The position numbers and the translations under genes are program-made. From a virus (Duplodnaviria; Heunggongvirae; Uroviricota; Caudoviricetes), in the IMG/VR virus record IMGVR_UViG_2778261180_000005: DNA of 36,121 nucleotides; one strand, written 5' to 3'. Positions within the stretch are counted from its first letter, which is position 1. The number at the start of each line of letters is the position of its first letter. Positions 2,763-36,121 of the stretch are shown one piece after another. The notes under the pieces are model-generated. The model made no database searches and had not been told where the DNA came from. It saw only the letters and a list, made by a program, of their open reading frames with translations.

Positions 2763-3761
2763 TTAGAGAGCCTCTAAAGGGCTTAAATCGAGTTCTAAGT
2801 TTTCCGGTGTTAAATCAGCTAACGGTGCATTCATCCACTGCGATAAATCTCGTTCTATGTCTTCATCACTAATGTAGTTGTTCAGATTGATTGCGTTGGT
2901 ATCATCAAAATACATTGGCTTAGATGGGTTGGTGTGGATGTATTCATTGATGAATGATTTAACATCTTTCAGCTTGCTAATCGGTAGCGTTTCTGTGAAT
3001 CCGCTATTCATTACCTTACGTGGGATTTTCTTGCCCTGAATATTCTTTTTAATCCCCATTTCTAAATCACCAGCTTTCCATCCAATGTTAAACAAATGTG
3101 AGCATTCAAAGGTGATTTTCTCGCTGGTGTGCTTCTGGTGTTCTCTTACCCGTTGCATCGGATCTTTGCGAGTGGTAATTCCATATTTGAAAAACTTCTC
3201 GCCAACACGAATTAGATAAAAGTGCATAGGGCGCTGTGCAAACTTGTTTCTGATAACCTGTTTTCTACCATTCTGAATTGATTTAAGTACACCCCTAACC
3301 AAAGGGCATGTTAACCCGCCTTGTCTGCGGTTATTGTGTAAATCACCTTTCTTGTGAATCTTTCCGTGGCACTTACAACGAAGAATTAGTTTAGTGTCAA
3401 CACCCTGATAAGGTTCAGCCAGACCTAACACATCCCACCCTATCGGCTTGTAGAACTTGCGAGCGTTTTCTAAGTGTTCTTCTTCGGTAAATCTAAACTT
3501 CTTCTTAGGCGGTGATACTCTATCTTTGCCAGTAAACTGACCAGTTAGAACATGACTAATACATGGCGTTTTAACCTTTCCGTTAACTTCTATGCAAACT
3601 TTGGTGTTCTGGAATGGTTTCTTTACAGGAAGCACAAAACCACTGTATAACCATCCATGCGCTTGACAAACTTTAATGATTCTGGTTTCATATTCGACCG
3701 GAGGGGTCGCACGTTTGCTTTTTGCGGTAAATTCGATATCCTTTGCTAAAGTAGTATTCAT
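2763..3761 (-). CDS. T5orf172/GIY-YIG-superfamily nuclease-like protein (332 aa from ATG 3761)
   Basis: Motif HFYLIRVGEKFFKYGITTRKDPMQRVREH ... SGFTETL. Two N-terminal Cys/His-containing repeat modules. SD GAGGA before ATG 3761. The upstream 47 codons of the track ORF lack an SD. Confidence 0.7.
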   Translation of the reverse strand: MNTTLAKDIEFTAKSKRATPPVEYETRIIKVCQAHGWLYSGFVLPVKKPFQNTKVCIEVNGKVKTPCISHVLTGQFTGKDRVSPPKKKFRFTEEEHLENARKFYKPIGWDVLGLAEPYQGVDTKLILRCKCHGKIHKKGDLHNNRRQGGLTCPLVRGVLKSIQNGRKQVIRNKFAQRPMHFYLIRVGEKFFKYGITTRKDPMQRVREHQKHTSEKITFECSHLFNIGWKAGDLEMGIKKNIQGKKIPRKVMNSGFTETLPISKLKDVKSFINEYIHTNPSKPMYFDDTNAINLNNYISDEDIERDLSQWMNAPLADLTPENLELDLSPLEAL

Positions 3762-3796
3762 ATTAGTGTCCTCGAAAATAATAAGTTCACTACTAT

Positions 3797-4249
3797 TTAT
3801 TGAGAAAAATTTGTTGTAATGGTTGAAGACCACGGGCATGAGTAGTAACCACGACCGCCACCGATCAAGCAAATGGTCGGACGGAAGCCAGTAAGATCGC
3901 AAAATGAATCAGTGTCATGTGCTGGGGAACGATGCTCTGCTTCGTTAGAGAAAATGTTGGCTACCGGAGATTCCACTTTAACTTCCGGTGCTTCTTCAAC
4001 ATCTGACTTAACTTCTTCGACCACTGGTTCAACTGCCGGAGATTCTTCTTTTGTTTCTTCAATGACGATCTCAGGTTCTTTCATTGCTTCAACCAGAGAC
4101 GGATCAACTTCGTCGAATACCACTTTATCATCTGCGGTGTCTGCTGCCAGAATAAGATCGTTAATACTGGTTCCTTCTGCCGGAGTTTCTTCTTCCATTT
4201 CGGAAGCCAGTTTAGTTAATTCGGTTTCTACGAACTCGATCATCAACAT
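3797..4249 (-). CDS. hypothetical highly acidic protein (150 aa)
   Basis: About 30 D/E in the first ~100 residues. Same strand as the 332-aa nuclease-like gene and 35 nt upstream of it. Weak SD. The antisense S/T-rich ORF is judged an artefact. Confidence 0.45.
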   Translation of the reverse strand: MLMIEFVETELTKLASEMEEETPAEGTSINDLILAADTADDKVVFDEVDPSLVEAMKEPEIVIEETKEESPAVEPVVEEVKSDVEEAPEVKVESPVANIFSNEAEHRSPAHDTDSFCDLTGFRPTICLIGGGRGYYSCPWSSTITTNFSQ

Positions 4250-4289
4250 TAAAGGTAATGCCTATAAGATAAATTAAGTGAGGTTTTTT

Positions 4290-4871
4290 ATGATGAATGA
4301 TGTGCGCAAAGCATGTGATATCCCGTTCAATTTTATCCGCACCAAAAATGGCAAAGCGCCATCACATCCAATTGATATGGAAGCAAGGATCGTGACCCGT
4401 ATTGAAAACGAGGGTTTACCCTTGATTTATCACGGATTCAAAGGTGAGTATAAATCAATCAATAGCCGTATTGTGCTAGAGTGTGAAAGCTGCGCAAGAA
4501 TCAGAGATATAACAGCAAAACAATTCTTACATAATCCTACTGTGTGCCCGTGTAATCGTAGCAAATATGACAACAAATATAAAAATGGGCAACCAGTATT
4601 ATATGTTATGCGGTGTGGTGATGTGGGTAAGGTTGGAGTAAGTCACAATGTGTTGACGAGAAAACATAAGCTAAGATGCCAGAATAAGATGAAATTTGAT
4701 ATCATCGAGACTTTCGAATTTCAAGACGAAAAAGACGCATACGCGGCAGAATTGTTTATCAAGAAAAACCTAGTAAAAGGTGATTTTGATATTAAAGAAG
4801 GTGCTACAGAAACGTTTGTTTATAATGAAAAAATGGTCAGAAATATAGCTAACGTCGCCAGCATATTCTAA
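4290..4871 (+). CDS. T5orf172/GIY-YIG-like protein (193 aa from ATG 4290)
   Basis: Motif PVLYVMRCGDVGKVGVSHNVLTRKHKL ... EGATETF. The N-terminal module (EARIVTRIENEG...LECESC...CPCN) is paralogous to the modules of the 332-aa protein. SD GTGAGG. Confidence 0.65.
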   Translation: MMNDVRKACDIPFNFIRTKNGKAPSHPIDMEARIVTRIENEGLPLIYHGFKGEYKSINSRIVLECESCARIRDITAKQFLHNPTVCPCNRSKYDNKYKNGQPVLYVMRCGDVGKVGVSHNVLTRKHKLRCQNKMKFDIIETFEFQDEKDAYAAELFIKKNLVKGDFDIKEGATETFVYNEKMVRNIANVASIF

Positions 4872-15585: not shown

Positions 15586-15611
15586 CAAAAAAGCCACCCC
15601 GAAGGATGGCT
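15586..15611 (-). terminator. rho-independent terminator after the tube gene
   Basis: Minus strand reads GCCATCC-TTCG-GGGTGGC followed by TTTTTT. Confidence 0.8.
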
Positions 15612-15619
15612 AGATAATA

Positions 15620-26467: not shown

Positions 26468-26539
26468 AATTACCCCTTATTTAATTGTTATTGGATTAAC
26501 AATATTTAGGAGTAAGCCGCCCCGAAGGACGGCGAGTTA

Positions 26540-28444
26540 TTAGAACGATGTTACCCAACTACGGCCTCTATTTGGACGTCTGGCGATGTTTTTACGTTGT
26601 GGTCGTGTGATTGGCTTAGTTTCTTCGATTTTCTCGTCAGATTGCGATTTAGGAGCTTTTACGGGTTCTTCGACAACACGGTTTAAGCTGTCTTTCATTG
26701 CAATGAGTTTATCCCATGACATTTTTGAAAGGACGTAGCGAGAAGCCGCTGTAGCATACACGGCGCAGTCGAGCGCCTCGTTCCTAACGCCTGGGTTCTT
26801 TACCCATCTCACGCCAGTAGTAGTACGCTTGACAGATTCACTTAAAAGCTGATCGAGATAATCATCAGGAACGGTGTCTGATATTTCTAAGCCAATATGA
26901 GGATTATCTTTCAGGTTCCTAGCCAACATTTCACGAAATGCAGTTTTACCCACATTAACACCCAACATAAGCAATTCATGACCACCTGTGCGGGTAGGTT
27001 TAACCGGAATGATCGGAGCGTTACCAGCAGAACTACCTTTGATAGCGTGTAAGTTCTTCCACTTGCCGCAAATACGGTATCCAGCTTGAGTGAATCGACC
27101 GTTCGATGTATCAAGGAAGCTGGCGAGCATAGGAACACGATCACCCGATACAGTAGTAAATTTGGTTTTATGGAAGTTGATTAATCTATCCCATACAGGG
27201 GATTCATATCGTTCACAGTTATGATCGTAAAAGCTGCGATGATCCAGAATATAAATCTTATCCTTTGCCACGCCCATGATTGTAGTTTCTGCGCGATCTA
27301 ATTGCTGGTCGGTACCCGCACACAAGAAAATCACGTCATCAGGGATATTCTCGATAGAAACATCTGTTTTTAGTTGTTCCAGTTCATTTGCTTCTACTGC
27401 CGTGTCCTGATCGTCGTATACCTTGCCTAACACGGTGTTATAAAATGATTGTAAATCAAAGGATTGCCACGCATGGCTAAAATCAACCACACAAGCGCGG
27501 ATCGTGCTGAAAGGTGAATACAGACGGCTGATCCAGAATCCTGCTACCTCACTTTCACGGGTTGCTCTCCACTCGCCTTGTGCTACTGCCCTGATTCGTT
27601 CCCCTTCGGTCCATGCGTTCTTACAGTGGGGGCAAATATAACGAGCGGTATCAGGATCGGGTAAGTTCTTACCATCGATGTTACGCCATTCAAATTGAAC
27701 GTTTTCCCACTCGATCACCTGGTGTTCCCCGCAATGAGGACACGGAACAAAAAACATACGCATATCACTTGATAACCATTGCTGGTTAATGCTTCCGAGC
27801 TTACTGGTCGGGGTACTGGATACGACTAATCGGCCTTCATCGCCAAAGGTAGTTAAACGGTTAGCAGCCAGTGCCACCGGATCACCTTCTTCTGAGGCTG
27901 TAGCAGCATCGATTTCGTCAAGCAATCCAACCTTTGCGGTCTTACCGCGTAGGGTTGATGGACTAGTAAGCGATACCATATAAAGGAAGTGGTTTGATTT
28001 GAGCTGGAGCTGATTGTTGTTATTAACAGAATTGCGATCATTCTTGTCTGTAACCACGTCTTTTAATGCATCACATGCTTCGATAGACGGTCGGATCTTA
28101 CCCGCGAGATATTGAGACATTTCTTTAGCGGTTGATTGTCCGATAATCATATTGCATGGATCGTTAGCCATCTGGTTAAACAGGATACCGTTTAGGATGG
28201 TAGTTTTTCCGATCTGCGCACTGGTCATCAGTACATACTTTTTCTTATTCTCAAGGAAAGGAGCATCAATCATGCCTTTCTGGAATGACAGCAATTTAAC
28301 TTTATCCCCCGCTTGAGGACCATCTACCAGCACCATATTCGCTTCGCACCATTCAGAAGGAAGGAGTTTAGGCGGTGGCGTAATATATTTGGCTGCATTT
28401 TTGAGAATCTTTTTTAATTTGGCCTTATTAGAAATCAGTTTCAT
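26540..28444 (-). CDS. terminase large subunit, lambda gpA type (634 aa)
   Basis: Walker A SAQIGKTT, Walker [11 protein letters not shown], paired CxxC motifs (CPHCGEHQ ... CPHCKNAW). First gene of the late operon. SD GAGGGT. Confidence 0.95.
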
Positions 28445-31260: not shown

Positions 31261-31356
31261 AGTGGAAATCCTCTAAAAGAAAGTGAATCAAAGTAAGTTC
31301 ACTATTATTTATAACGAGAAATTTTTGTCTAATTTGAAAGGAATTGGTATTCAGTC

Positions 31357-31858
31357 GGCTTCGCCTCCTTCATAGATTTTGATTAAATCATCATCAAAAC
31401 GAAGAAGTATCTTTAGAATATAAGAATCTTTCTTTTGGAGAAATAATAATCCGGAAGCAATTTAGCAACCGAAGGTTGCAATCCCGAAGGGATACCAATA
31501 CCTTTCATGATCATTAAAGTGATCTAGAATCATCTAGTAACCAGTTAACTACTATTATCTTCAAAGTGATTATTACTATCTTTCTAGAATCAGTTAGTAA
31601 CTAGTTTAAAATCCCTTTCAAGAAAATCCTTTCAGAAGTGATTCTCGATGCCACGCAGTGGCGTCGCAGACGTTTGAGAGTGAGCGAAGCGAGCGAGCAA
31701 ACTAGTTAATTCCTTCTAAGACCATCTAGTATCATCTAGTTTAAATTAGTGTTACTAGAAGTAATTGGTTAGCGCTTCGCGCAGTCGGGCTACGCCCTCC
31801 TAATATCTTTTTGGTTATTTGTTGTTTTTGGTTTTACACATGAGCGTAGCGAATGTGT
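31357..31858. repeat. cluster of G/C-clamped mini-hairpins with trinucleotide GNA (or complementary TNC) loops
   Basis: GGC-TTC-GCC 31357. GCAACC-GAA-GGTTGC 31465. ATCCC-GAA-GGGAT 31481. GATGCCAC-GCA-GTGGCGTC 31647. GC-GAA-GC 31684. GCGC-TTC-GCGC 31772. GGGC-TAC-GCCC 31787. ACACAT-ga(GC-GTA-GC)ga-ATGTGT 31836. Confidence 0.75.
31523..31606. repeat. two copies of a 24-bp CTAG-rich repeat exactly 60 bp apart
   Basis: TCTAGAATCATCTAGTAACCAGTT (31523-31546) and TCTAGAATCAGTTAGTAACTAGTT (31583-31606), 21/24 identical. Related CATCTAGT motifs at 31724-31740. Confidence 0.75.
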
Positions 31859-31890
31859 TATATAATATCTATGCACGCCCGATCCCCCGC

Positions 31891-32133
31891 TTTTGCCCCT
31901 CACTAAGTTAATGTTTTATAAAGAGTTTTTCTCACCAATCCTTTTCGGGGGCAAATTTCAGGGGCAAAAATTAGATTTTCAGGGGCAATTATTGGCATTT
32001 CAGGGGCAAAAATGAGGGGCAAAATCACTGTTTCCCAGAATTTCAGGGGCAAAAATAGTGGGTTTCAGGGGCAAAAATGGGATAGTGAAATCTAGGGGAT
32101 TTTGGTTCAGGGGCAAAATTCAGGGGCAAATTT
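31891..32133. repeat. iteron array: nine direct copies of (T)TTCAGGGGCAAA(A) plus one inverted copy
   Basis: GGGGCAA cores start at 31948, 31961, 31982, 32003, 32016, 32046, 32068, 32110 and 32123. The inverted copy is at 31893-31899. Confidence 0.9.
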
Positions 32134-32135
32134 CA

Positions 32136-32185
32136 TAGTGTAGGGCTAGTGTAGGTTTGAAAATCCTTTGTTGACACTGTGTAGG
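32136..32185. promoter_or_regulatory. three GTGTAGG operator-like repeats around the promoter
   Basis: TAGTGTAGG at 32136-32144 and 32147-32155. TGTGTAGG at 32178-32185, inside the -35/-10 spacer. Confidence 0.6.
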
Positions 32186-32199
32186 ATCGGTGGTATACT
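32171..32199 (+). promoter_or_regulatory. near-consensus sigma70 promoter with extended -10
   Basis: TTGACA (32171-32176), 17-nt spacer, TGgTATACT (32191-32199). Confidence 0.8.
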
Positions 32200-32465
32200 T
32201 GAAAATTCGAGATAAATATGTTATAATATTTGTATTGAAAGTGAAAATTTACCGATTTTCCTTCCTATTGTTATCACTGTGTTAAATTGTTATATGTCTG
32301 TGAAGATTTGGATCTGAGAGAAAATCTTGTAACAAATCTTTACAATTCATAGCTCAATTAATGCTCACCGCTTTAGCAAAAAGTGCTATGCCTTTTTCTA
32401 AATTGATTGAATAAACATCAATTTGGTTAATTCGTGTTCTTCTCTTTAGCAATTCGTGCTGCGGT

Positions 32466-32512
32466 TTAACACATTTAACACGCCTGATAACATCCAAATA
32501 ACATTTTAACAT
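32466..32512. repeat. five phased (T/A)TAACA(C/T) repeats in AT-rich DNA
   Basis: TTAACAC at 32466 and 32475. ATAACAT at 32487 and 32498. TTAACAT at 32506. Spacing is 8-12 bp. Confidence 0.5.
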
Positions 32513-32591
32513 ATCTCTGTTCTAAATACATATATAAGAGATAAATGTGAGGGGTTGAAAAATTAAAAACAATCCCCATATAAATAATAGT

Positions 32592-32612
32592 GAGCGGTTA
32601 ACGCTCTTTTTT
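32592..32612 (+). terminator. short terminator/attenuator at the end of the untranslated leader
   Basis: GAGCG-GTTAA-CGCTC followed by TTTTTT. Lies 35 nt before the start of the 60-aa HTH gene. Confidence 0.55.
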
Positions 32613-32647
32613 AAGAAATCATTAATCCAGATTTAGGAGGATTCAAG

Positions 32648-32830: not shown

Positions 32831-32872
32831 TACTTTGACTGAGAATTATATGATGGCTTTAAAAATAAAAAA

Positions 32873-32900
32873 GCCCCCTTGCGGCAACAAGGAGGCTTTT
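32873..32900 (+). terminator. terminator-like hairpin
   Basis: GCCCCCTTG-6nt-CAAGGAGGC (one mismatch) followed by TTTT. Confidence 0.6.
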
Positions 32901-32942: not shown

Positions 32943-33884
32943 ATGTTATTTTCCGCTAACTTTTTCACTAACGAAGTAACCAACGCTAAAGCAGTTATCA
33001 AATTTGGCACCGAAGCAAACAAGAAGATTCAGCCGAAAGTTGTTGCTCATGTTTCCTTTGCGCAGCAGAAATCCGCTTTCGCTGGCTTTAAAGCACATCG
33101 TGAAGCACTGATCGCGGCTGGCTTTGGTGTTGACGGTAAACTGCCTAACGGCATTCGTAAAGCAATCGACCGCGTTAAACCTGCTAAAGACGTTGCAGTA
33201 GACCACATCGTTACTTTTACCGTTAAGAACTCTTCTGAACTGTTCCACCTGGTTATTGCTGGTGATACTGCTATCGTTTCCGCTCCTAACATGGATTTTC
33301 AGGATACCGCTGATTGCCAGATCACCTTCGGTCGTCGTAAAGAAGTTACCGGAAAAGCTAAACTGAACTTCACTAAATCCGGCAATCCTTACTTTGCTGT
33401 TTTCTTTAACAGCCACGCTACCGAAAAAGAAGTTGTAGAACTGGTTGCTTATGAAGGTGAAGAGAAAGAACGTATTGAATCTTGCGAAGCATTTCTGGAA
33501 CTGGAAGCACAGGTGAATGCTGTTTCTCCGGTTGTTGAAGATCGCTTTGCTGCACTGGAAGCACAGATCGCAGAACTGAAAGCTGCACTGGAAGAAAAAG
33601 ACCAGATTATCGAAGCACAGAAAGCTGAGATTGAAGAACTGAAAGCTAAAGAAGTTGCTCCGGTAGCAGTAGTTGAAAACGCGGCTGATGAGGCCGCAAA
33701 TGATGAAGTAGAAGTGAAAATCGATGTGATGCGTGATCCGATGGCTGCACTGCAATTACTTCGTTCTTTTAAGGGCAAATCTCATTTTTCTAGTGATGTA
33801 GAAGATGAGGAAGAAGAACAGAAACGCAATGCTGCAATGCTTCATGATGAAATGTACGGTACTAACTTTTCTTACTGCCAATAA
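32943..33884 (+). CDS. abundant-expression-type protein of unknown function (313 aa): globular N-domain, coiled coil, acidic C-terminus
   Basis: SD AGGAG. Codon choice is dominated by E. coli high-expression codons (CTG, GAA, AAA, CGT, GGT, GCT). Coiled coil FAALEAQIAELKAALEEKDQIIEAQKAEIEELKAK. Confidence 0.85.
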   Translation: MLFSANFFTNEVTNAKAVIKFGTEANKKIQPKVVAHVSFAQQKSAFAGFKAHREALIAAGFGVDGKLPNGIRKAIDRVKPAKDVAVDHIVTFTVKNSSELFHLVIAGDTAIVSAPNMDFQDTADCQITFGRRKEVTGKAKLNFTKSGNPYFAVFFNSHATEKEVVELVAYEGEEKERIESCEAFLELEAQVNAVSPVVEDRFAALEAQIAELKAALEEKDQIIEAQKAEIEELKAKEVAPVAVVENAADEAANDEVEVKIDVMRDPMAALQLLRSFKGKSHFSSDVEDEEEEQKRNAAMLHDEMYGTNFSYCQ

Positions 33885-33983: not shown

Positions 33984-34010
33984 GAAAAATAACCGCCCCC
34001 TTCGGGGCGG
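33984..34010 (-). terminator. rho-independent terminator after the 94-aa membrane protein gene
   Basis: Minus strand reads CCGCCCC-GAAG-GGGGCGG followed by TTATTTTT. Confidence 0.7.
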
Positions 34011-34168
34011 GAGGATTAATACTCAATCTATACTTGTTATGTTTTTATGTTGTATAGTCACTGACTATGAAAACACTGTACTGAATGTGTTTTATGGCTT
34101 TTAATCGGGAACTCTCTTTCGAAAATTCCCTGTTAAAACCACATAAGGAGAAAAGGCAGATTACAATA

Positions 34169-34547: not shown

Positions 34548-35105
34548 TTAAGACACATCAAATTCATCGTCTTCTTCTGGTTCTTGTTCTTCCGGTTCAT
34601 CCATTAATGGTAATTCTTCTTCCTCGTCTTCTCCCAAATCTGCATTTTCGAACAAGTCCCCTACTTCATTTAAACGACGCTCGATAATCTCCCTTAGCTT
34701 ATTCTTTAATGTTTTCTGGTCAGTGGCAGATTCGAGAATTTCTAAAGCGTCGATTGTGGCGATCTGCAAAATAGTCTGCTTCACTTTCCCGCAGTATTCC
34801 GCTAGCTCCTGCTCCACATAACCGACGGGAATCAGGAGATTCATTTTTTCCTGGTTCTCTCGTTCGATGGCGTCCGCTAATGCTCTTTCTCTGCGGAGAC
34901 GTTCTTGATCAATCGCTTCTTTGATTGAAGTTTGTTTAAGTGGGTTAATTACGTTCTTTAGCACCCAATCGCAACCTTCCTTTGCTGGTACACGACGCGT
35001 GTGGGTGTTCATCGGTAGTCCCCTTTCTAACCATCGCTTACCGCCACCATTCAATGTATAGCCATATAAACGGGAAATTTCTGTAAGGGTTAATTCTTCT
35101 TTCAT
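34548..35105 (-). CDS. putative terminase small subunit, Nu1-like winged-HTH protein (185 aa)
   Basis: The N-terminus LTLTEISRLYGYTLNGGGKRWLERGLPM...VPAKEGCDWV parallels lambda Nu1 (KKQLADIFGASIRTIQNWQEQGMPV...). Coiled-coil middle, acidic tail. SD GGAGGA. Confidence 0.55.
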   Translation of the reverse strand: MKEELTLTEISRLYGYTLNGGGKRWLERGLPMNTHTRRVPAKEGCDWVLKNVINPLKQTSIKEAIDQERLRRERALADAIERENQEKMNLLIPVGYVEQELAEYCGKVKQTILQIATIDALEILESATDQKTLKNKLREIIERRLNEVGDLFENADLGEDEEEELPLMDEPEEQEPEEDDEFDVS

Positions 35106-35401
35106 TGGTTATCCTCCATTAAATTTGCGTAATTTTATTTATTGGTTTTACGCAAAATCTAAGCGCCTAAATCGCATTCTAACGAAGGGAAAGATCCAGT
35201 AATGGTAAGGGTTAGGAAGTGGGTTAATAGTCGCGTAGCGACCGCGCCATGAGTGAAGTGATCACGTTTTAGATCCTGACGCGCACATCAAATAACGGGG
35301 TGCCGAAAACTCGCTTTATTTCACCCGTGGAACAGTACCTTTTGATTTTGTCAAGTCTTTTTTATAAATAATCGAAAATATTTTTCACGCGAGGGCAAAT
35401 C

Positions 35402-35770: not shown

Positions 35771-36121
35771 TTATTGGGGTTTACAACATTTAGGTTTGCC
35801 AATTCGCCTGGCTAACTCTTGCTGAGTGATTTCTGACTGTAAAAAAGCATTTAACAGCAATACTTTAGAGGCGACGCTCAAAGGTACTTCAATAAAGTGA
35901 TCATGACTATTTAATGGCGAAGGTAACGGGATAAGCTCGTTATCTTCAAAATAAAAATCAAATGCGGTCAGTAAAGCATCTTTTGCCGCTTCCATCGCTT
36001 CAGCGACAGTTTCGCCCTGCGTCAACGCTTCAGGGATATCCACAAAAGAAACCATATAACCGCCTTCCGGCGCGGGTGTAAGAGTGACGGGATAACGCAT
36101 AATTTCGACTGTCTCTCGCAT
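35771..36121 (-). pseudogene. hicB: hicB antitoxin gene truncated by the phage insertion (HicB residues 1-104 plus 5 phage-encoded codons CCKPQ)
   Basis: MRYPVTLTPAPEGGYMVSFVDIPEALTQGETVAEAMEAAKDALLTAFDFYFEDNELIPLPSPLNSHDHFIEVPLSVASKVLLLNAFLQSEITQQELARRIGKPK matches E. coli HicB as I recall it. The native protein continues QEITRLFN...; here it continues CCKPQ-stop. Confidence 0.85.

Follow-up and report, generated by a model that had tools for sequence, protein, structure and literature searches.

What could a dense array of short hairpins do in DNA that encodes no protein? The question is raised by positions 31357–31858 of a 36-kb Escherichia coli prophage (IMG/VR record IMGVR_UViG_2778261180_000005; the whole 36,121-nt stretch that was analysed is referred to as the window), in which a preliminary description had noted G/C-clamped hairpins with 3-nt GNA loops, or their TNC complements, interleaved with CTAG-rich repeats. 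We firmly show here that the locus is a composite, selected, non-coding cis-acting region in which the short hairpins matter as hairpins. As to what they do, we tentatively propose that they are single-stranded DNA (ssDNA) signals, resembling single-strand initiation (ssi) signals, within an iteron-type origin or control region. A transcriptional role is almost equally probable.

DNA mini-hairpins of the d(GCGNAGC) and d(GCGNNAGC) types are exceptionally stable as DNA and are poorly bound by single-stranded DNA-binding protein (SSB). They occur naturally in the complementary-strand origins of G4, St-1 and alpha3, in RSF1010 ssiA (as CCGAAGG) and in the promoters of the N4 virion polymerase (PMC13037366). 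We counted such sequences across the window. The 502-bp interval makes up 1.4% of its length and holds 7 of its 37 G/C-clamped GNA or TNC heptamers (SS-GNA-SS, where S is G or C; binomial P = 7e-7), comprising two CCGAAGG, three GCGAAGC/GCTTCGC and two GCGTAGC/GCTACGC. Every other 502-bp segment has at most 4, and 2,000 dinucleotide-preserving shuffles of the interval gave a mean of 0.30 and a maximum of 4. Among G/C-rich triloop hairpins with stems of at least 4 bp, the loop is GNA or TNC in all 6 within the interval but in only 3 of 20 elsewhere (Fisher P = 4e-4). Eight hairpins had been reported for the interval and each is present where it was placed, but the full count is nine; they include an exact GCGAAGC and a GCGTAGC nested inside ACACAT/ATGTGT, and a further hairpin, GTCGC-GTA-GCGAC, is found well to the right as had been described (Table 1). 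The stems are 4–6 bp long, with the exception of that at 31357, which has 3 bp.

CTAG tetranucleotides cluster in the same DNA. In the window as a whole they are rarer than expected (53 versus 82), which agrees with the avoidance of this word that had been pointed out, but 8 of the 53 fall within 240 bp (binomial P = 3e-9), a number that was reached in 2 of 2,000 shuffles. They start at 31524, 31534, 31584, 31601, 31702, 31726, 31736 and 31755 (8 in 235 bp), and they include the 24-bp repeat pair (31523–31546 and 31583–31606) for which a 60-bp spacing had been given correctly and whose members are 88% identical. Both clusters are thus significant relative to the rest of the window and to shuffled sequence. 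TrpR and CRP sites were considered for the CTAG repeats and rejected: the repeats are not spaced as TrpR sites would be, and a single weak CRP-like site is present.

The cluster occupies the left part of a gene-free stretch of 1.39 kb (31261–32647) that is bordered by a minus-strand open reading frame (ORF) of 150 aa and a plus-strand ORF of 60 aa and in which none of 15 RefSeq lysogens has an annotated gene. Minus-strand mini-ORFs (33/34 codons) were rejected as genes because the frame is broken or replaced among alleles: in the one at 31413–31514, 1-nt indels are present in alleles L007, L009, L012, L013 and L015, and the segment is replaced in L008, L016 and L017. No tRNA or tmRNA gene was found, and no Rfam 15 family reaches its gathering threshold in the window, a looser E-value scan giving chance snoRNA-like matches only. 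We also rejected intrinsic terminators. As had been stated, no hairpin is directly followed by a T-run, and a terminator scan of 31335–32170 found no G/C-rich hairpin with a U-run; the phage's own terminators are unlike these hairpins. Intergenic UUCG-tetraloop hairpins with 7-bp stems, one of them with a G-U pair, are present on the transcribed strand at about 15592–15612, 26515–26535 and 33990–34012. Of these, the first and third, each with a T-run, are the ordinary terminators of the phage; the second, which follows the large terminase gene, has no T-run.

To assess the alleles of the region we compared 15 RefSeq lysogens, 28 viral-contig copies and 10 metagenome copies. The interval had been treated as one structured region; it is instead a mosaic that combines four or more kinds of element with separate evolutionary histories, namely copies of a motif that is also found in insertion sequences (the IS-type motif), a 170-bp inverted-repeat module (module A), CTAG/AAGTGAT repeats that vary in copy number, and an allele-specific hairpin block. 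A conserved left block, which runs from 30760 to about 31543 or 31641, is followed by an allele-specific block from about 31642 to 32266–32600. To the right of this come a conserved leader and the 60-aa gene, an allele-specific gene for a 313-aa protein and conserved DNA beyond. Four allele types (A to D) share the same order of hairpins, T-rich stretch, palindrome, iterons, promoter and gene.

Within this mosaic the hairpins are preserved. Among 21 distinct type-A alleles, the hairpin positions 31650–31690, 31772–31797 and 31836–31858 have 0–0.006 variants per site per sequence, compared with 0.125 for the rest of the interval. The hairpins at 31650–31690 contain 0–1 variant cells, and the hairpin at 31772–31782 is invariant within type A, with the loops TAC and TAAA in alleles elsewhere. 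The middle base of the loops varies among alleles (GAA/GCA and TTC/TAC). Other alleles carry different stems at corresponding places. Type B has ACGCC-GTA-GGCGT in place of GCCAC-GCA-GTGGC and CGTC-GCA-GACG, together with the same GTGAGCGAAGCGA; ACGGC-TAC-GCCGT is found where GGGC-TAC-GCCC stands in type A; and in L008, L016 and L017 the tandem hairpins at 31465–31493 are substituted by GACGCTC-CCT(A)-GAGCGTC and TGC-GAA-GCA. Stems are also altered by compensation. At the first IS-type motif site GGGC/GCCC changes to TGGC/GCCA, and the type-B palindrome ACACTT-N9-AAGTGT is compensatory with respect to ACACAT/ATGTGT, with a spacer 2 nt shorter and no inner mini-hairpin. In both type A and type B blocks, GNA is on the plus strand in the left-hand hairpins and on the minus strand in the right-hand ones. 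Near-invariant hairpins and compensated stems, together with the missing gene annotations and broken mini-ORFs, bear out the earlier view of a non-coding, structured, cis-acting stretch. Among the functions that had been listed for it, priming by ssi-type signals fits best; a partition site, a nuclease or recombinase site and a structured RNA would be other possibilities. Because the palindromes all differ in sequence, selection for protein half-sites is unlikely and intrastrand pairing is the simpler reading.

The same data bear on the possibility that the hairpins never form and that the palindromes, CTAG repeats and iterons are duplex operators bound by dimeric regulators of an immunity region. 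Such operators would suit a site between divergent promoters of a temperate phage, the heteroimmune-like allelic swap of a repeat array together with a protein, the maintenance of ACACAT/ATGTGT as ACACTT/AAGTGT in type B, and the resemblance of the tandem CTAG decamers to protein-binding sites. However, palindromes that all differ could not be read by one protein, the preservation of symmetry through two-arm changes (GGGC/GCCC to TGGC/GCCA) and whole-stem swaps fits selection for pairing, and duplex binding leaves the uniform 3-nt GNA spacer unexplained. We therefore regard operators as quite unlikely.

Conservation could also reflect recent spread rather than selection if the hairpin modules are recombination cassettes that have little direct function and serve mainly as patches of homology for shuffling neighbouring modules between phages, as has been proposed for the promoter-early stem-loops (PeSLs) of phages. 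The strong mosaicism, block exchange and indels of whole repeat units are in line with this idea, as are the presence of one module in unrelated lytic phages and of one motif in insertion sequences (described below), and the varying loops at the motif sites hint at template switching or gene conversion. Yet within type A the hairpin sites are far less variable than the neighbouring DNA, unrelated allele blocks independently retain GNA hairpins at corresponding places, and the mapped block boundaries (about 31543, 31641 and 32266–32600) are off the hairpins. Recombination cassettes are thus an unlikely explanation.

To the right of the hairpins lies an iteron array (Table 1), which includes one inverted TTCAGGGGCAAA copy at 31886–31900. 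The iteron word differs among alleles (GGGGCAA, GTGTAGG, CGGGGAT or GGAATCTTGGGGATTT) and matches the allele of the 313-aa protein at 26 of 26 loci, the protein types being about 25% identical to one another. Since the 680-bp segment between iterons and gene is 91% conserved in allele L033, this co-variation argues for protein–DNA recognition and not mere linkage. The type-B word GTGTAGG also occurs three times at 32138–32186, around and inside the type-A rightward promoter. The interval forms the left half of a spacer of about 0.85 kb between predicted divergent early promoters, and a consensus scan predicted no promoter in either direction within 31335–32170; a role of the hairpins that depends on transcription therefore has no obvious transcript.

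In the mechanism that we propose, the hairpin block at 31650–31858 would be part of a control module or origin of the iteron type. The phased iterons at 31886–32144 would be bound by the 313-aa protein, after which the adjacent T-rich DNA at 31800–31835 would open. The GNA hairpins could fold on the exposed single strands, with the plus set to the left (31650–31690) and the minus set to the right (31772–31797). Being stable and poorly bound by SSB, these mini-hairpins may mark the entry of host priming or primosome proteins, like the ssi signals of phage G4 and RSF1010 oriV, and another protein would bind at the arrays of CTAG/AAGTGAT repeats. Action in DNA is suggested by the strict GNA bias, which gives extra stability in DNA only, by the lack of a predicted transcript, by the recurring order of the elements and by the opposed strand polarity of the two hairpin sets. 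That the iterons would be an origin rather than operators, that the hairpins would act in DNA rather than RNA, and every step of priming are inferences.

Table 1. Features of the hairpin region and its surroundings, with positions in the window
Feature	Position	Strand	Description
Leftward sigma-70 promoter (predicted)	31304–31331	minus	TAGACA-16-AATAAT; 10/12 matches; kept in all alleles; would drive the operon of the 150-aa ORF and Rha; left boundary of the promoter-free spacer
Module A	31335–31507		37-nt imperfect inverted repeats 31335–31371 and 31471–31507 (76% complementary) around a 99-bp centre
IS-type motif copy 1	31352–31368	minus	CAGTCGG-C-TTC-G-CCTCC; minus strand reads GGAGG-C-GAA-G-CCGACTG with GCGAAGC
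GGC-TTC-GCC hairpin	31357–31365		3-bp stem
Krischvirus-like core	31369–31451		83 bp; about 80% identical to Krischvirus intergenic DNA (RB49, Phi1, JSE and others; 59 records)
Tandem hairpins GCAACC-GAA-GGTTGC and ATCCC-GAA-GGGAT	31465–31479, 31481–31493
First CTAG/AAAGTGAT repeat zone	31507–31641		Holds the 24-bp pair and tandem ATCTAGWAWC decamers; unit number varies by allele
Allele-specific block	31642–32266		Hairpin cluster, T-rich stretch, palindrome, iterons and promoters; swapped as a unit among types A, B, C and D
GNA-on-plus hairpins GCCAC-GCA-GTGGC, CGTC-GCA-GACG and exact GCGAAGC	31650–31662, 31662–31672, 31684–31690	plus
Second CTAG zone	31702–31758		ACTAGTT..CATCTAGTATCATCTAGTTTA..TACTAGAAG; in type A and type D blocks only
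GCGC-TTC-GCGC hairpin	31772–31782	minus	Minus strand holds GCGAAGC
IS-type motif copy 2	31782–31801	minus	Minus strand reads AGGAGGGCGTAGCCCGACTG; 20 nt identical to the pan-bacterial consensus
GGGC-TAC-GCCC hairpin	31787–31797	minus
T-rich stretch	31800–31835		After the last hairpin in all four allele types
Palindrome ACACAT-N11-ATGTGT	31836–31858		Around GCGTAGC (31844–31850)
Iteron array	31886–32144	plus	About 11 copies of TTCAGGGGCAAA; spacing 21/22 or 42/43 bp; one adjacent pair 13 bp apart
Two strong rightward sigma-70 promoters (predicted)	32171–32227	plus	11/12 matches each
313-aa protein gene	32943–33884	plus	Beta-rich N-terminal part, coiled coil of about 55 aa, acidic tail
GTCGC-GTA-GCGAC hairpin	35230–35242	plus	Between the TerS-like gene and a 101-aa ORF

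The locus resembles known ssDNA-hairpin signals, and each known family fails on at least one defining feature. The ssi signals (those of G4, St-1 and alpha3, and RSF1010 ssiA and ssiB), from which ssDNA is made double-stranded in an orientation-dependent manner through primers laid down by DnaG, the PriA primosome or RepB', likewise consist of G/C-clamped hairpins with GNA mini-hairpin cores; the CCGAAGG of RSF1010 ssiA is found in both module-A hairpins, and RSF1010 oriV has hairpins on both strands beside iterons, as the window does. However, the window hairpins are more numerous and shorter than ssi signals, the homology is limited to the heptamer, there is no ssDNA life stage, and the ORFs scanned include no cognate primase such as the RepB' of IncQ plasmids. 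Iteron origins (P1 oriR, F oriS, pSC101 and lambda ori) are similar in having phased repeats, about 11 in the window, beside a T-rich stretch and upstream of the promoter of the co-varying protein, but the 313-aa protein does not resemble Rep, O or any other initiator. The early promoters of N4 share the 3-nt loop and the GNA mini-hairpin, on stems of 5–7 bp compared with the 4–6 bp (3 bp at 31357) of the window. N4-type promoter hairpins can extrude from supercoiled DNA. Unlike in N4, the loops in the window include GCA and GTA, and there is no gene for an N4-like polymerase in the window or in the prophage of strain KSC64; the largest ORFs encode tail proteins of 1,258 and 1,173 aa.

Two further families act in transcription. 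At ops sites, hairpins on the non-template strand recruit RfaH (at GCGGTAGC) or, after an RNA pause hairpin, the UpxY proteins of Bacteroides (at YGCGNAGCR) (PMC11685472). The window shares with ops and opsX sites the GCGAAGC and GCGTAGC heptamers and the placing of a mini-hairpin in tandem after a longer one, and in allele L017 GACGCTC-CCT-GAGCGTC is followed by CTGCGAAGCATA, the same 12-mer as Bacteroides fragilis opsE, which also follows a pause hairpin. It differs in having no predicted upstream promoter and, among the ORFs scanned, no NusG paralog (NGN/KOW), and the E. coli RfaH consensus GGCGGTAGnnTG has no match with up to 2 mismatches in 31261–32647. The PeSL cassettes of RB49 and phi1 have both promoter and terminator activity and mediate the shuffling of modules (PMC2839356). 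They too are small hairpins beside sigma-70 promoters in a mosaic non-coding context, and the window has true homology, with about 80% identity over 83 bp, to an RB49 intergenic module that might itself be a PeSL. The described PeSLs have polyG/polyC stems with terminator activity, unlike the 3–6-bp stems, triloops and missing T-runs of the window. With respect to promoters, the first IS-type motif copy lies about 20 nt upstream of a predicted one and the other hairpins have none nearby.

Two of the nine hairpins belong to the IS-type motif, a purine-rich hairpin with the sequence GAAGGA-GGGC-loop-GCCC-GACUG(G/A)A, of which the window has two copies on the minus strand. In both, the purine strand is the sense strand of the leftward operon. 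Copy 1, about 20 nt upstream of the –35 element of the leftward promoter, has the allelic forms GGGC-AAA/TAAA/ATA-GCCC and TGGC-TAAA-GCCA; allelic forms score 18–20 bits in a covariance model built from aligned motif copies. Copy 2 (on the plus strand CAGTCGGGC-TAC-GCCCTCC, 31782–31800) matches the core of the model only (positions 24–43; 28 bits, E = 4e-4). In the prophage family the stem and flanks at these sites are fixed and the loop is hypervariable (TTC, TAC, AAA, TAAA, ATA or TA). The GNA loop had been presented as the defining feature of the cluster; at these two sites the loop is free, so it is not the selected feature there.

The motif is widespread. The exact 19-mer of copy 2 has at least 120 matches in contigs from one genome per species, and among the matches listed the hosts are Alphaproteobacteria, Planctomycetes, Acidobacteria, Bacteroidales, Clostridia, Spirochaetes and others. 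Unrelated viral contigs, whose GC contents range from 0.34 to 0.68, carry the motif as well, and a 35-nt consensus matched 165 plasmids, most of them rhizobial (motif loci L068–L235, L237 and L238); a search of phage genomes gave no match. Outside E. coli the purine strand reads stem-AAC-GGAAGGA-GGGC-GUA-GCCC-GACUGGA-GUU-stem', where the outer stem is 8–20 bp of free sequence. This outer stem is 85% paired across 43 distinct copies, with all four Watson–Crick pair types at most positions. Double-sided changes number 347, compared with 130 in shuffles, and a shift of register abolishes the signal. The A-U pair beside the core is G-U in 14 of the 43 copies, from which it follows that the purine strand is the one that folds. 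Copies are found inside insertion sequences (IS21, IS3 and IS110), 45–125 nt from the element end. Those in IS21 are on the sense strand 70–170 nt upstream of istA (120–140 nt in two annotated plasmid copies), and the other neighbours are IS3-type, IS110-type, tyrosine-recombinase and serine-recombinase genes. In one high-GC phage contig, three copies are antisense to capsid and sheath genes.

No Rfam 15 family covers the IS-type motif, full-text searches of the literature for the motif and repeat sequences returned no relevant paper, and a keyword search for a conserved IS leader stem-loop returned nothing specific. Comparison, mostly at the level of consensus sequences, led us to drop hammerhead, hairpin, twister and pistol ribozymes, the k-turn or C/D box, the resemblance to domain IV of the signal recognition particle RNA, the ssoA CS-6 element and the MOBQ nic site. 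The conserved core of the motif, which has stacked G-A pairs and an AGGAGG word, may be recognised by machinery common to all hosts, for example the ribosome, RNA polymerase or the primosome.

The second outside relative is in RB49-like phages. Around the 83-bp Krischvirus-like core, module A has a fold z-score of about –5 on either strand; as a unit it is absent from allele L032. The core was the sole match in a distant-similarity search of the region against phages, and its pattern is confined to this prophage family and Krischvirus contigs. RB49 has two such modules in tandem, with a canonical terminator on one side and the promoter of an early ORF on the other. The first consists of the core followed by CTCC-GTA-GGAG and TCGC-GAA-GCGA, at a place that matches the tandem hairpins of the window (31465–31493), and the second of the core followed by CCGC-TAC-GCGG; like those of the type-B block, the RB49 hairpins have GNA or TNC loops. 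Inspection of the core revealed no recognisable promoter. Parts of the locus thus do have relatives, in these phages and in insertion sequences, although the preliminary description had named no described system with this combination. Module A might itself be a gene for a small non-coding RNA, about 170 nt in length and closed by a long stem, or one of several such genes in the region. Its z-score, the conservation of this non-coding region and the location of the RB49 copies downstream of promoter-like sequences could be read in that way. However, a z-score that is equal on both strands is expected of any inverted repeat, there is no promoter, terminator or Rfam match, and the mini-hairpins are not formed in the lowest-energy fold of the module. 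We consider a small RNA very unlikely.

These two relatives are the main grounds for the view that the hairpins function in transcription: as insulators, attenuators or leader structures acting on transcripts that enter the two divergent promoters, or as ops-like non-template hairpins that pause RNA polymerase or recruit a factor, in what would be a PeSL-like set of cassettes. The IS-type motif is on the sense strand in transposase-gene leaders, 120–170 nt upstream of istA and 45–65 nt inside the IS end, with outer-stem covariation that includes RNA-typical G-U pairs and with a strand-specific fold, and copy 1 has the orientation of the leftward promoter and closely precedes it. In RB49 the module is located in the early region, with a terminator on one side and early promoters on the other, and stem-loops of the RB49/phi1 PeSL type terminate transcription (PMC2839356). 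In addition, GCGNAGC hairpins of the non-template strand are known to recruit RfaH and UpxY (PMC11685472), and the 12-mer in L017 is that of opsE. Against this, no promoter is predicted from which 31335–32170 would be transcribed, the hairpins have no T-runs and differ from the phage's terminators (7-bp stems, UUCG tetraloops and T-runs), neither a NusG/KOW protein among the ORFs scanned nor an RfaH ops consensus in the region was found, and no reason of stability is known for a GNA bias in RNA. On balance, a transcriptional role comes close to the ssDNA-signal reading in probability.

For ssDNA signals at an iteron-type origin, the following points are unfavourable, in addition to the two relatives, both of which point to a transcription unit. 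The GNA loop at the IS-type motif sites is incidental. The 313-aa protein has no family in Pfam, PHROGs or NCBIfam, with no likeness to Rep, O or other initiators; a profile search of the PDB retrieved coiled coils only, a homologue search retrieved near-identical E. coli proteins only, and a single-sequence AlphaFold2 model (predicted local distance difference test score, 46) was unusable. This protein could instead be an immunity repressor, with the iterons as its operator array. Domain scans of the prophage's ORFs detected no recognisable primase, helicase or loader. A search for DnaA boxes, IHF sites and GATC clustering found nothing convincing: the DnaA-box-like TTTTACACA at 31832–31840 is weak, since the window has 68 near-matches to a DnaA box, and the AT-rich evidence is also weak. 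Finally, the promoter predictions come from a consensus scan only.

In summary, we consider it possible that the locus combines two things: a 20–25-nt motif that would be an undescribed structured element of mobile DNA distributed across many phyla, and other GNA hairpins that would form a new kind of ssDNA signal array through which a phage lacking its own replication genes recruits host priming at an iteron origin.

The prophage to which the locus belongs carries head, tail and lysis genes on the minus strand, a large serine recombinase gene at 995–2689 and a lambda gpA-type large terminase gene at 26540–28444. Its early end comprises about ten small genes, and the ORFs scanned there show no resemblance to replication proteins, repressors, primases, RNA polymerases or NusG paralogs; in a RefSeq lysogen the early region is annotated solely as hypothetical proteins and Rha. 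The segment 30800–33900 is present in 60 of 5,426 complete E. coli genomes (about 1%), in every case on the chromosome. It had no match in a plasmid collection and none at high identity among sequenced phages (megablast), scans of viral and metagenome sequences for relatives found the same E. coli prophage family only, and the neighbouring 150-aa protein as a query found no relatives in genome contigs. In strain KSC64 the copy is an element of about 38 kb inserted in ycdX.

Because the early/control region lies between terminase genes, we also weighed a packaging site (cos or pac), with the hairpins and repeats recognised by terminase. The TerS-like gene (PHROG 57; 34548–35105), which is near the prophage end, and the gpA-type large terminase gene flank the region 6 kb apart, and the hairpin at 35230–35242 is upstream of the TerS-like gene. 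However, the allele-specific block co-varies with the 313-aa protein and not with terminase, and it bears no resemblance to a known cosN, so that packaging is highly improbable. The divergent intergenic region upstream of the TerS-like gene also contains a palindrome, TTTGCGTAA/TTACGCAAA (35124–35156), alongside the 35230–35242 hairpin.

Other features of the prophage were recorded in passing. Downstream of the two strong rightward promoters is a leader of about 420 nt (32231–32647) that is 91% conserved in a type-B allele, with a terminator-like hairpin, GAGCGGTTAACGCTC followed by T6, at 32592–32612 just ahead of the 60-aa ORF; this leader may act as an attenuator or constitute a small RNA. 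Between the plus-strand ORFs of 60 and 313 aa, at 32869–32900, is a strong terminator on the minus strand, which has a 14-bp stem and a T-run. The cargo beside the serine recombinase varies by lysogen: in the window, 2763–4871 encodes 379-aa, 134-aa and CapR-domain ORFs, and in KSC64 (L236, 7712–11101) a GIY-YIG nuclease and a DEAD/DEAH helicase, and the site may be a hotspot for defence genes. A HicB-like antitoxin ORF at the window edge (35771–36121) lies past the point at which the KSC64 prophage ends in ycdX, and the lysogen from which the window derives therefore has a different junction or extra cargo.

GCGNAGC-type DNA mini-hairpins have few documented natural roles, namely G4-type and IncQ priming, N4 promoters and ops sites. 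This locus is distinct in being a dense array that is clearly under selection, in which allelic replacements act as natural compensatory-mutation experiments, and in adjoining a repeat array that is paired with a protein matching no family. As for the IS-type motif, which is missing from Rfam, it is a candidate for a regulatory element common among insertion sequences, and it is possibly a new, separate element. The prophage is common enough, in about 1% of complete E. coli genomes, for work in available strains such as KSC64. If transcription is what the hairpins act on, the range of ops-like or insulator mechanisms would widen to include phages; if they are priming or entry signals, they would reveal how host enzymes serve a small temperate phage that has no replication genes.

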